A stretch of DNA of 25,147 nt from a virus (taxonomy: Duplodnaviria > Heunggongvirae > Uroviricota > Caudoviricetes). The notes under the pieces were generated by a model. That model was not told the origin of the DNA. It saw nothing but the letters and a program-made list of their open reading frames with translations, and did not search any database. Shown here one piece after another: positions 1 to 25,147 of the stretch. Positions within the stretch are counted from its first letter, which is position 1, and every line of letters starts with the position of its first letter. A program made the position numbers and the translations under genes. The DNA lies in the IMG/VR virus record IMGVR_UViG_2740892230_000012, one strand, 5' to 3'.

Positions 1-105
1 TTCCGAATCCCTGGATATGTTAAATCTTCAGCCCGCCAGCGGTAGGACACTGGCGTTTTTCCTGATGGCTGAAATATATCTGACAATTTCAGTAGAGGAT
101 TAACC

Positions 106-420
106 ATGCATAACGATCAACATAATTATGATTTATGCCTGCAAGCCATAAATGAGCGGGTAAAATCAGAGTGCCTCTTACTCCTCCCACAAGAACACGA
201 TGCAGTAAAATCCATTCAGGCTGAGCCGTATGGACATCTCACACCTGTGACTCTCGGCATTATCGCCAGAGCATTAACACAGCCCATGCTTATGCGTATT
301 AAGACCAATATAAATAACTGGTTGAATGAAGAATTAAGCTACCTTGATTGTGAGTGGGACAATCATTACGCAAAAACACAAAAAGAACGCATCTTCAGTC
401 GATTATCCAGCAACAGATAA
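106..420 (+). CDS. hypothetical protein, 104 aa, no family recognised
   Basis: Intact ATG-to-TAA ORF from the six-frame track; GAGGA Shine-Dalgarno-like motif about 7 nt upstream of the ATG; convergent with gene X fragment whose stop is 9 nt away. Confidence 0.4.
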   Translation: MHNDQHNYDLCLQAINERVKSECLLLLPQEHDAVKSIQAEPYGHLTPVTLGIIARALTQPMLMRIKTNINNWLNEELSYLDCEWDNHYAKTQKERIFSRLSSNR

Positions 421-22941: not shown

Positions 22942-23624
22942 TTATCTGTCGATACCCCAGCACGCCAGCGCGCTCTCCTGGTCACGACGGGATACCTGAC
23001 CGTAGCAGTTGTTTGAACGAATACGGCAGTCTCTGCCACCGTCCTTAATCCACCNNNNNNNNNNCTCACTTACATTTTGCCAGTTCGCAGGATTTCATGT
23101 TATCCGCCCGCGTGGCCATGCCTTATTTTTCNNNNNNNNNNCTTGGCCAACGTCATTTATTAGCAAAATATTCTGCTTATCTGTCGATTCCCCAGCACGC
23201 CAGCGCGCTNNNNNNNNNNTGCTCCCCTGCGATCACCAGCATTAATTCGTCTGTAAAACGTCGACGGGAAACACTTACCGGGACCAATGTTGTACGGACA
23301 GAATGACGCGATCCCCGCTTTCTGGGGTTCGGTCAATGGCACTCTGATGTTTTTCTCCACCCATGCCAGCGCCTTATCACGTTCGATGGCGTTAACCTGG
23401 TCGCATTTCTCCTTCGACAACTTCATGCCCGGGACGACAGGTTTACCATCCACCAGAATGGCACCGCGACAGATGGTCCAGATACCCGCGCCATCACGGT
23501 ATGCCGTGGTGTGGTTACCTTCCTTTTCATCCAGAAACTGGTCGAGAATGTCAGGCGCAGGCGCACCAGCGGCAATCAGCGCCAGAACGGCAGCCGACAG
23601 GCCGTATTTGATTTTGGTGTTCAT
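22942..23624 (-). CDS. SAR endolysin, GH24 T4-lysozyme family (span inflated by three N10 gaps and duplicated C-terminal segments)
   Basis: MNTKIKYGLSAAVLALIAAGAPAP is a Gly/Ala-rich weakly hydrophobic N-terminus typical of signal-arrest-release domains; catalytic spacing E-8aa-D-5aa-T in DEKEGNHTTAYRDGAGIWTICRG; C-terminus ...WIKDGGRDCRIRSNNCYGQVSRRDQESALACWGIDR. Confidence 0.85.
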
Positions 23625-23660
23625 GGATATATTAAATATTCAGCCGCTGTCCCTGGCCCA

Positions 23661-23847
23661 CTAAATACGCACTTTAAGATAAGTCAGCCCCGGATGAAGC
23701 CAGTAAGCCGGCACTTTTTTAAAGGGTGGAGTATTAAAATCACGAAGAAGAGCCTCCCGCACAATTGCATCCTTATCAGCACCACTGGCCAGCGCTTCAA
23801 TCTCAGCAGCTACCTGCAGATATCCCATGCAACGGCCAACGCGCTTC
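23661..23847 (-). CDS. hypothetical protein X, C-terminal fragment (copy 3), directly upstream of the endolysin
   Basis: ...CMGYLQVAAEIEALASGADKDAIVREALLRDFNTPPFKKVPAYWLHPGLTYLKVRI-stop, 36 nt before the endolysin ATG; visible part is soluble and not holin-like; N-terminus lost in the N-gap at 23848. Confidence 0.4.
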
Positions 23848-23857
23848 NNNNNNNNNN

Positions 23858-24232
23858 TCCTCACTGTGCTGGTGCGATGGAGGTGTTACTTTCCCATTTT
23901 CTGAGATGGTTATTTTCCCAGCATCACCGGATACAACAAAGGATGGCCGGTTACACTCCCATTCCTGATCTTTATCAGGTGCAGACGCAATAAAATAACG
24001 TTTATTTCCTTCCTCTCCGGCACTTTTAACCGTAATGGAGTACTCAGACTGCAGACAAGACGCCTCTTTTTCTGACCGCAGTGTTGACGGCGGCATCTTC
24101 AGAGAACCAGTAATTCTTCCCGGTAGCTTTCCTTTGTAGGTTATCAACACATCCTGCGCCTCTAAAATTATGGGGCGCTTTTCCGGCAACGGTTCGTTCC
24201 CTTCACATAACCCGGCAGCAACATCCATGAAA
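23858..24232 (-). CDS. hypothetical Y-family protein fragment (between N-gaps)
   Basis: ...FMDVAAGLCEGNEPLPEKRPIILEAQDVLITYKGKLPGRITGSLKMPPSTLRSEKEASCLQSEYSITVKSAGEEGNKRYFIASAPDKDQEWECNRPSFVVSGDAGKITISENGKVTPPSHQHSE; paralogous to 24243..24463 and 24826..25104. Confidence 0.4.
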
Positions 24233-24242
24233 NNNNNNNNNN

Positions 24243-24463
24243 ATCAGCCCCTGCTTTTTATTGTTCTTCAGGTAATCAATGGCAAATTCAATGAGCGCCT
24301 CACTATGCTGGTGCGATGGCGGTGTTAATTTCCCATTTTCTGAGATGGTTATTTTCCCGCCATCTCCGTATACAACAAAGGATGGCCGGTTACACTCCCA
24401 TTCCAGGTCACTGAAATTATCATTATGAATACTGAAACACTCTGCGAGATTTCTGCTCATCAC
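24243..24463 (-). CDS. hypothetical Y-family protein, N-terminal part (cut by N-gap at 24233)
   Basis: MMSRNLAECFSIHNDNFSDLEWECNRPSFVVYGDGGKITISENGKLTPPSHQHSEALIEFAIDYLKNNKKQGL; GTG or ATG start 38 nt after the upstream gene stop. Confidence 0.4.
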
Positions 24464-24497
24464 TTTCCGGCAATAATCGTAAAACGCAGCAAACTGC

Positions 24498-24748
24498 TCA
24501 TCGCGGCGTTTTTTTTTCAGGCTGCTGAAGATGCTCTTTCAACCAGGAAGCGCAGCTTAGATTCGCCGCGCGATCAAGAATAGCTTCTTTCATTTCGTCT
24601 GCTGCAAGCACCTCATTTTTTGTTGGGGTACTTTTTTTCAATTCAGCGATATAGCACTCCAGTTTTTCAATGCGTGATTCAACATCATCTTTTTCTGACC
24701 GCAGCGTTGACGGAGGCATCTTCAGAGAACCAGTAATTCTTCCCGGTA
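24498..24748 (-). CDS. hypothetical Y-family protein, C-terminal part
   Basis: ...GSLKMPPSTLRSEKDDVESRIEKLECYIAELKKSTPTKNEVLAADEMKEAILDRAANLSCASWLKEHLQQPEKKTPR-stop; contains an A9 homopolymer on the coding strand. Confidence 0.4.
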
Positions 24749-24825
24749 NNNNNNNNNNCTGATTTTTGCGTTCATGGATATTTATCAGGGTTTATCGATT
24801 TCAAATCCCTGGATATGTTAAGTCT

Positions 24826-25104
24826 TCAGGCCAGCGGTGGAGTCTTCAGAGAACCAGTAATTATTCCCGGTAGTTTTCCTCTGTAGGTTATCAACACATC
24901 CTGCGCCTCTAAAATTACGGGGCGCTTTTCCGGCAACGGACCATCCCCTTCACATAACCCGGCAGCAACATCCATGAAAAACTGCTTCGCCTGCTTTTTC
25001 GCCTCAGCTTCGTAAAACTCCAGCGTGGCACCTTCAGTACGGTCAAGACTAATCGCCACATCTGGCAACAACAGTGACGGATACCCACCAATTTCCAGTG
25101 CCAC
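24826..25104 (-). CDS. hypothetical Y-family protein (paralog ending ...GSLKTPPLA)
   Basis: MALEIGGYPSLLLPDVAISLDRTEGATLEFYEAEAKKQAKQFFMDVAAGLCEGDGPLPEKRPVILEAQDVLITYRGKLPGIITGSLKTPPLA; likely GTG start with no clear Shine-Dalgarno; followed about 50 nt downstream by a second endolysin start variant (ATGAACGCAAAAATC at 24775). Confidence 0.35.
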   Translation of the reverse strand: MALEIGGYPSLLLPDVAISLDRTEGATLEFYEAEAKKQAKQFFMDVAAGLCEGDGPLPEKRPVILEAQDVLITYRGKLPGIITGSLKTPPLA

Positions 25105-25147
25105 AGTAACAGTAATCTTATCCGGGTAATTATTTATCCCTTTAACA

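Follow-up and report, generated by a model that had tools for sequence, protein, structure and literature searches.

Several phage proteins, among them T7 gp0.7, T4 Srd and phiKZ Dip, target RNase E of the host or its degradosome in the course of infection. For gp0.7 and Dip the target is the C-terminal scaffold region of RNase E, whereas YdfR of Escherichia coli K-12 is reported to bind the catalytic N-terminal domain. The likeness of YdfR to these proteins is a functional analogy only, provided that the K-12 interaction is physiologically relevant; no relation of YdfR to gp0.7, Srd or Dip was found in sequence or fold.

YdfR is encoded in the K-12 Qin prophage (b1555, P76160) in the gene order essQ-ydfR-rrrQ, corresponding to the order holin-ydfR-lysozyme that we find at the closed-genome loci matching the window. 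In bacterial two-hybrid and co-purification experiments, the K-12 protein interacts with RNase E, at its catalytic N-terminal domain, and to a lesser degree with RNase G; residues 1-72 suffice for binding of RNase E, and the eluate of the purified protein contains much RNA (PMC13232886). Upon overexpression there is little change in the transcriptome and neither toxicity nor a growth defect, and the protein is listed as cytoplasmic (PMC13232886). According to the citation in the same paper, ydfR was also picked up in a genome-wide screen for envelope biogenesis (Paradis-Bleau et al. 2014, via PMC13232886). In our literature search on YdfR and DUF1327, functional data came from PMC13232886 only; 'DUF1327' occurs in one comparative-genomics paper, and most occurrences of 'YDFR' denote a melanoma cell line.

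Family identity and genomic setting

The window analysed here is the whole 25,147-nt stretch of a Caudoviricetes record (IMGVR_UViG_2740892230_000012), and the locus of interest lies at positions 23858-25147. The remainder of the window holds lambda-like late genes, e.g. terminase and portal. The initial annotation described the locus as a multi-copy block of paralogous and allelic genes that could not be assigned to a known family. The family is already known and named. The minus-strand ORF 24826-25104 matches Pfam DUF1327 (PF07041) with 102.7 bits (E = 1.3e-29, cutoff 25), full-length alleles of the matching closed loci reach 145-148 bits, and all three pieces of the region match loci annotated by NCBI as 'YdfR family protein'. 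NCBIfam returned no hits. The long form of the protein matches phrog_1085 (296 positions) end to end with E = 8e-162, a split-off 135-aa ORF aligns to positions 162-296 of the same group, and the short form matches phrog_406. The short, medium and long forms fall into PHROGs 406, 2091 and 1085, respectively, and these groups are the same family as ydfR, cut at different lengths and with no substantive difference. Compared with K-12 YdfR, the window allele is 46 % identical over exactly residues 1-74 (E = 1e-22) and unrelated beyond. In place of the K-12 version, the window carries a 114-aa short form together with fragments of 268-aa and 329-aa long forms.

The sequence motifs on which the earlier description was based are all present. 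EWECNRPSFVV..HQHSE is found in the minus-strand ORFs 23803-24228 and 24203-24463, and FMDVAAGLCEG..ITGSLK likewise in two ORFs (23803-24228, 24826-25104) and, as a third, truncated copy, at 24720-24748. One copy indeed runs on into ...GSLKMPPSTLRSEK (MPPSTLRSEK), and another ends with ...GSLKTPPLA-stop. Similarity between the pieces is well above chance and amounts to 92-97 % identity over 61-145 nt, with E = 1e-24 to 1e-57.

The best-covered segments of the family occur in 3,135 of 5,426 complete E. coli genomes, at up to 8 places per genome (median 2), and ydfR is present in 106 sequenced phage records, mostly of Stx-converting but also of other lambdoid phages. The order at every closed-genome locus examined, including L001-L005, is class II holin, ydfR and lysozyme, with a single such unit in each prophage. 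ydfR is always found next to genes for a Phage_holin_2_1 holin and a PF00959 lysozyme. In Salmonella, the gene lies just upstream of both, in the interval between Q and holin and beside a ParE/HTH pair. The placement of the gene in a slot upstream of the lysis genes does not hold for E. coli, where it resides inside the lysis cassette. This position argues against a moron, that is, self-contained cargo, as does a consensus scan of the holin-lysozyme interval of L004, in which no sigma-70-like promoter was found on the coding strand. With no such site there, transcription together with the late lysis operon is the simplest reading, and we infer that ydfR is transcribed within the phage late transcript alongside the lysis genes.

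The window as a chain of assembly pieces

The window contains 36 runs of exactly 10 N, which divide it into 37 pieces of 59-4,706 nt with a median of 333 nt. In the ydfR region, the spacers lie at 23848-23857, 24233-24242 and 24749-24758, so that the finding of the initial annotation spans three pieces (23858-24232, 24243-24748 and 24759-25147). All 37 pieces match at least one other piece, mostly a neighbour, at identities of 65-97 % and mostly of 85-97 %. In 24 of 39 pairwise matches the similarity reaches an end of both pieces, and many of the alternative alleles stop at common branch points. Matches running to both piece ends are expected for the branches of an unresolved repeat graph. The layout of allele after allele is found throughout the window, including the tail, head and terminase genes.

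Comparison with closed genomes shows where the individual pieces belong. The pieces of the ydfR region are 98-100 % identical to the closed-genome loci L001-L003. The piece 23220-23847 corresponds to L003 1873-2500 (99.8 % identity), and the piece 24243-24748 (minus strand) to L003 2501-3006 (98.4 %). In the closed genome the two matches abut directly at L003 2500|2501, so that the DNA of 24243-24748 continues from position 23847 in real genomes. Written between these contiguous pieces is a different allele: 23858-24232 (minus strand) matches L001 4001-4374 with 98.1 % identity and is an internal part, covering approximately residues 65-189, of the fused 268-aa ydfR type that occurs in E. coli O104:H4. 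Within 24243-24748, the minus-strand segment 24243-24463 contains the first 73 codons of the split-off 135-aa ORF, and 24498-24748 encodes residues ~100-182 of a 182-aa ORF, an extended YdfR.

The last piece comes from yet another locus, being 100 % identical to L002 2501-2889. Its positions 24759-24775 (minus strand) belong to a third lysozyme allele (MNAKI...), of which they are the initial 17 nt, as the lysozyme CDS of L002 ends at 2517. This lysozyme start indicates a short-form locus in which ydfR directly precedes lysozyme. The short-form ydfR of the 114-aa type follows at 24826-25147 (minus strand; PF07041), with 100 % identity to the locus of the 'YdfR family protein' WP_000731192.1; the window stops 23 nt before its ATG is reached, so that the 5' end is missing. 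None of the ydfR copies in the window is complete. The lysozyme (endolysin) gene at 23160-23624 (minus strand; PF00959, 65.7 bits) is likewise broken, by the spacers 23132-23141 and 23210-23219, with alternative-allele pieces at 23065-23131 and 23142-23209; the piece 23220-23847 matches the L003 stretch where a lysozyme is annotated.

The recurrence of a 'gene X' in different contexts, noted initially, is seen as well, at 430-616, 646-832 and 23661-23847 (all minus strand) with 85-93 % identity. 'Gene X' is the C-terminal end of the C-terminal module (C-module) of long-form ydfR. The copy at 23661-23847 comprises the last 62 codons of the C-module of an L003-type allele, in the same register as the ends of the 135-aa ORF of L003 and the 329-aa ORF of L004. 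The copy at 430-616 is the C-module end of a fourth locus type (L005), the piece 1-616 being 100 % identical to NZ_CP027394.1 865464-866079. The copy at 646-832 is of the L001 type and forms the C-terminal end of its fused 268-aa ydfR, the piece 627-832 being 100 % identical to L001 3740-3945. The adjacent pieces 1-616 and 627-832 thus each match a separate prophage of E. coli O104:H4 (NZ_CP027394.1), and the two loci, L005 and L001, lie ~750 kb apart in this one closed genome. Three alleles of one 186-nt segment are present in the window, which shows that the source genome carries three or more such lambdoid prophages. At the window start, positions 1-45 (minus strand) are a remnant of a short-form ydfR 3' end with intergenic DNA, just upstream of the L005-type lysozyme, and 38 nt of it are 89 % identical to 24804-24838.

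We rejected the possibility that the Ns are masked bases in a continuous sequence, as the flanks do not lie at a distance of 10 nt in any reference but overlap, repeat or go backwards. From this misplacement of the flanks and from neighbours that stem from distant loci, we conclude that the Ns join separate contigs. The multi-copy block is very probably an assembly artefact, with ydfR as the gene concerned. An assembler would have failed to separate at least three prophages, and the alternative ydfR alleles would have been written in succession. That a graph was flattened in this manner is deduced from the pattern of the pieces. It is quite probable that the explanation holds as a whole, namely that the locus consists of ydfR allele fragments from different prophages joined by 10 N, with one such late-operon gene per lambdoid prophage.

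A true tandem array of paralogues in the cargo slot of one prophage would also place copies side by side, as they are written in the window, and genomes do hold several copies, up to the maximum of eight. Two or more copies contiguous on one molecule, which would define such an array, are found neither in the window, where 10-N joiners separate all copies, nor in the closed genomes examined. No copy in the window is complete. The order of the pieces fits no closed genome, a foreign allele interrupts reference DNA that is contiguous, and neighbouring pieces map 750 kb apart. The same allele-after-allele pattern in the tail, head and terminase genes and the single unit per prophage at every closed-genome locus examined add to this, so that a tandem array is highly improbable and close to refuted. 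The adjacent 'paralogues' are alleles from separate prophages. The recombination joints described between them correspond to real indel and recombination differences among the prophages of closed genomes, but not to joints within one contiguous block. The main value of the case is one of caution: the window is a chain of unresolved assembly pieces, and repeats, duplications or 'recombination joints' anywhere in it need comparison with closed genomes before they are read biologically.

Architectures and predicted structure of YdfR

The gene is seen in its long form in L004 of E. coli 90-3040, where a single ORF of 329 aa runs from the YdfR N-terminus through a linker into the C-terminal part. 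In this C-terminal part EWECNRPSFVV..HQHSE comes first and is followed by the 'X' sequence ..GRCMGYLQVAAEIEALASG..LTYLKVRI. X therefore belongs to one gene together with that part of the family initially termed Y which contains EWECNRP, and the two are not separate families. The long form consists of a conserved N-domain of ~73 aa, a linker of variable length and a C-module of ~115 aa with the motifs EWECNRP, GRCMGYLQVAAEIE and DF(D/N)xPPFKK.

The survey of related prophages that had been proposed does show variability: closed genomes hold short 114-aa, split 182-aa plus 135-aa, intact 329-aa and fused 268-aa forms. The short form directly precedes lysozyme in L002, and in the 268-aa form of L001 part of the linker is replaced. 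L005 carries an in-frame holin::ydfR fusion, followed by the reverse-strand 104-aa ORF and the 3' remnant of a short form. In L007-L009, a 213-aa protein comprises linker and C-module without the DUF1327 domain and is followed by a 75-aa DUF1327 fragment. The modularity between prophages is real, yet it is ordinary lambdoid mosaicism.

The split form of L003 is caused by a homopolymer. At 24509-24517 the window reads T9 on the plus strand and A9 on the coding minus strand, as placed by alignment and ORFs, and A9 in place of A8 splits ydfR into ORFs of 182 aa and 135 aa in different frames. The A9 run lies exactly where the two ORFs meet, and the 329-aa frame is regained by a +1 shift or when one A is lost. 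Among 67 closed genomes matching this stretch, the A8 query is found at 99 % identity or above in 57 and the A9 query in 8. As the in-frame A8 is commoner, A9 is more simply read as a sequencing error or an ordinary frameshift mutation than as programmed slippage. A programmed -1 frameshift at A_AAA_AAA was rejected, since the -1 frame, as read from the sequence, meets a stop.

K-12 YdfR, with 103 aa, diverges after residue 74 and carries neither the linker nor the ~115-aa C-module. The short forms of 103-114 aa, including the K-12 protein, end shortly after the N-domain. As a K-12-type N-domain joined to a long C-terminal part exists (P0026), the K-12 protein seems to be a shortened version, namely the truncated N-terminal domain of a larger protein with two domains. 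This larger protein has a wide distribution among lambdoid and Stx-converting E. coli prophages and occurs in Salmonella too.

A word-indexed homologue search with the 329-aa query returned 160 hits, and all that carried an organism name were from E. coli; their length classes were 329, 296, 287, 305, 268, 333, 211, 183 and ~213 aa. An exhaustive search of 1.84 billion proteins with the C-module protein found only 38 representatives. The distant ones among these are from Salmonella enterica, where a profile search gave 202 hits, of 105-338 aa among the matches listed. At ~30 % identity, these relatives keep the plan of YdfR-like N-domain, variable linker and C-module, and eight invariant residues and both domains are shared by the E. 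coli and Salmonella forms. In Pfam, the Salmonella relatives gave only sub-threshold hits, for P0130 (DUF1327 17.7 bits, YqeY 16.5 bits), and the C-module and the 104-aa ORF gave none.

The AlphaFold2 model of the long form, built on an alignment of 61 sequences, predicts an N-domain of three beta-strands and a long helix for residues 1-73 (pLDDT 76-95), a disordered stretch of low pLDDT for residues 74-119, a helical hairpin for residues 122-170 (pLDDT ~70) and a C-module of three strands plus helices for residues 190-270 (pLDDT 78-92). It supersedes an earlier model from 22 E. coli sequences, which had a mean pLDDT of 48 and was usable at residues 1-72 only. The complete gene product is a protein of 296-329 aa, with two folded domains in the model. 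Structure prediction, suggested initially as a route to identification, delivered these domains but no significant fold match in PDB or BFVD.

Selection and possible function

Among closed-genome alleles (n = 4-5), dN/dS is 0.18-0.52 for the YdfR N-domain and 0.17-0.39 for the C-module, compared to 0.06-0.08 for lysozyme and 0.00-0.07 for holin. The values of ydfR are 3-5 times those of its neighbours, and ydfR is under purifying but relaxed selection. Diversifying selection was rejected, as each informative pair gave dN/dS of 0.17-0.52 in this small sample of 4-5 alleles. The dS of ydfR is up to 0.22 and does not exceed that of the neighbours (up to 0.41). Hypervariability, as proposed initially, is thus not found at the level of substitutions. 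What varies is the module content between prophages, through indels, truncations and recombination.

The diversification had been taken as a signature of defence or anti-defence genes, with ydfR or its exchangeable C-terminal part acting e.g. in superinfection exclusion or in inhibition of host defence. The strong module variation between prophages of both E. coli and Salmonella would fit such cargo, and so would the relaxed constraint relative to the flanking genes (0.17-0.52 against 0.00-0.08), the neighbouring ParE/HTH pair in the Salmonella interval and the additional reverse-strand ORF inserted at some loci. This ORF lies at 106-420 on the plus strand of the window, encodes the 104-aa hypothetical protein WP_000551290.1 between ydfR and lysozyme in the L005-type locus and matches phrog_1853 with E = 8.4e-50. 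In PADLOC-DB, at E <= 0.01, there was no match for the long form, the stand-alone C-module protein, the short form or the 104-aa ORF. With dN/dS well under 1, dS not above the flanking genes, no promoter-like site on the coding strand (L004, consensus scan), a presence in well over half of the complete E. coli genomes and a housekeeping RNase as the sole experimental partner, we consider a role in defence improbable.

The raised dN/dS could also reflect erosion of a remnant without current function in cryptic prophages. Many length classes, fragments of 62-213 aa, the A9 frameshift, the holin::ydfR fusion and PGAP pseudogene flags among ydfR loci agree with decay. In contrast, dN/dS remains at 0.17-0.52, the intact forms of 296-329 aa represent hundreds of member sequences, both domains and the eight invariant residues are kept from E. 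coli to Salmonella at ~30 % identity, and the gene is carried by sequenced Stx-converting and other lambdoid phages. Decay as the general explanation is therefore unlikely. Frequent truncations, the frameshift allele and the holin fusion could by themselves also mean that the gene is dispensable.

From its position next to holin and lysozyme at all loci, YdfR may be an accessory protein of lysis that modulates the cassette of class II holin and lysozyme, e.g. lysis timing or envelope breakdown. In lambda, S is directly followed by R, and this pair works without a gene in between. The model of the long form contains no membrane-like segment, and truncated and frameshifted alleles are common. 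The appearance of ydfR in the envelope-biogenesis screen, as far as it is cited (Paradis-Bleau et al. 2014, via PMC13232886), favours the proposal, whereas the cytoplasmic listing and the absence of a growth defect upon overexpression of K-12 ydfR (PMC13232886) speak against it. On balance we regard a lysis accessory role as rather doubtful.

Another possibility, by analogy with the K-12 protein, is an action on RNase E. The similarity to K-12 YdfR over residues 1-74 coincides with the confidently folded N-domain, and docking on RNase E is on this ground proposed to occur via the N-domain. YdfR would be expressed late, together with the lysis genes, as a cytoplasmic product; its N-domain might dock on the catalytic N-terminal domain of RNase E, possibly also on RNA, and could thereby tune host or phage RNA decay late in infection. 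Binding of RNase E was demonstrated for the K-12 allele only and under overexpression, and the fold and family searches gave no match of independent functional support. For the YdfR alleles of the window, this mechanism is a tentative proposal.

If docking on RNase E does take place, the long form could act as a modular late-phase effector, in which the flexible linker tethers a C-module with a second activity or partner. This extension is speculative and itself rather unlikely to be correct; the C-module is often truncated, split off or lost. If it were true, K-12 YdfR would be a docking stump, and its weak overexpression phenotype would underestimate the function of the family. For follow-up work on RNase E, the relevant form is the one of 296-329 aa, beyond the 103-aa K-12 protein.

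Assembly of the window

The entire window (1-25147) consists of 37 contigs strung into a single chain, with a 10-N spacer at each of the 36 gaps (for example 833-842, 915-924, 1035-1044 and 1179-1188). Along this chain, tail, head and lysis genes appear as alternative alleles placed in succession, and 8,084 of 24,787 bases have a match in another piece of the window. Any further finding of the initial annotation in this window that builds on repeats or duplications is suspect. The lysozyme gene adjoining the ydfR region (23160-23624) is broken up by two short alternative-allele pieces (23065-23131 and 23142-23209). Its apparent ORF of 154 aa spans N spacers and is no real protein.

Length variants of YdfR

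The long ydfR allele of the window carries a homopolymer of nine A residues on the coding strand (24509-24517). Comparison of a closed-genome locus (L003) with that of E. coli 90-3040 (L004) reveals that A8 versus A9 sets whether the gene is a single 329-aa ORF or is split into ORFs of 182 and 135 aa. The split A9 allele is matched at ≥99% identity by 8 of the 67 closed genomes having the stretch. Three explanations of the A9 run are possible: an ordinary frameshift, an error in sequencing, or a site of slippage.

YdfR of the K-12 Qin prophage (L006 6055-6366) comprises 103 aa. In comparison, the long-form homologue P0026 (296 aa), found on 129 contigs, contains an N-domain of the K-12 type (MTQNYELIVKGIRNFENKV...) fused to the complete linker and C-module. 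This occurrence of the K-12-type N-domain in a full-length context supports the idea that the K-12 protein is a truncated derivative.

Module order and neighbouring insertions

In three E. coli prophage loci (L007-L009 3001-3897), a 213-aa protein consisting of linker and C-module without the DUF1327 domain lies directly 3' of the holin, and after it come a DUF1327 fragment of 75 aa and an ORF of 95 aa on the reverse strand. As the DUF1327 fragment comes after the linker/C-module protein, the domain order is rearranged. In Salmonella enterica (contig AAIPEJ010000005.1, L010 1136-1838 and 3001-3918), a long YdfR-like gene is located in the Q-holin interval, so that its slot differs from that in E. 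coli. Upstream of it lie a ParE toxin and HTH pair and a 177-aa ORF, for which no Pfam match was found.

Some prophages carry a 104-aa ORF (phrog_1853) as an insertion between ydfR and lysozyme, on the strand opposite to ydfR (window 106-420, plus strand; L005 3106-3420). Next to this ORF, 38 nt remain of the 3' end of a short-form ydfR. At the O104:H4 locus with the 268-aa ydfR (L001), only ~20 nt of the end of this ORF are left, suggesting that insertions and deletions were nested at the site. In the second prophage of E. coli O104:H4 (NZ_CP027394.1, L005 3430-4560), loss of the stop codon of the class II holin has left its reading frame continuous with ydfR, yielding a 376-aa ORF; PGAP marks holin and ydfR each as a pseudogene.
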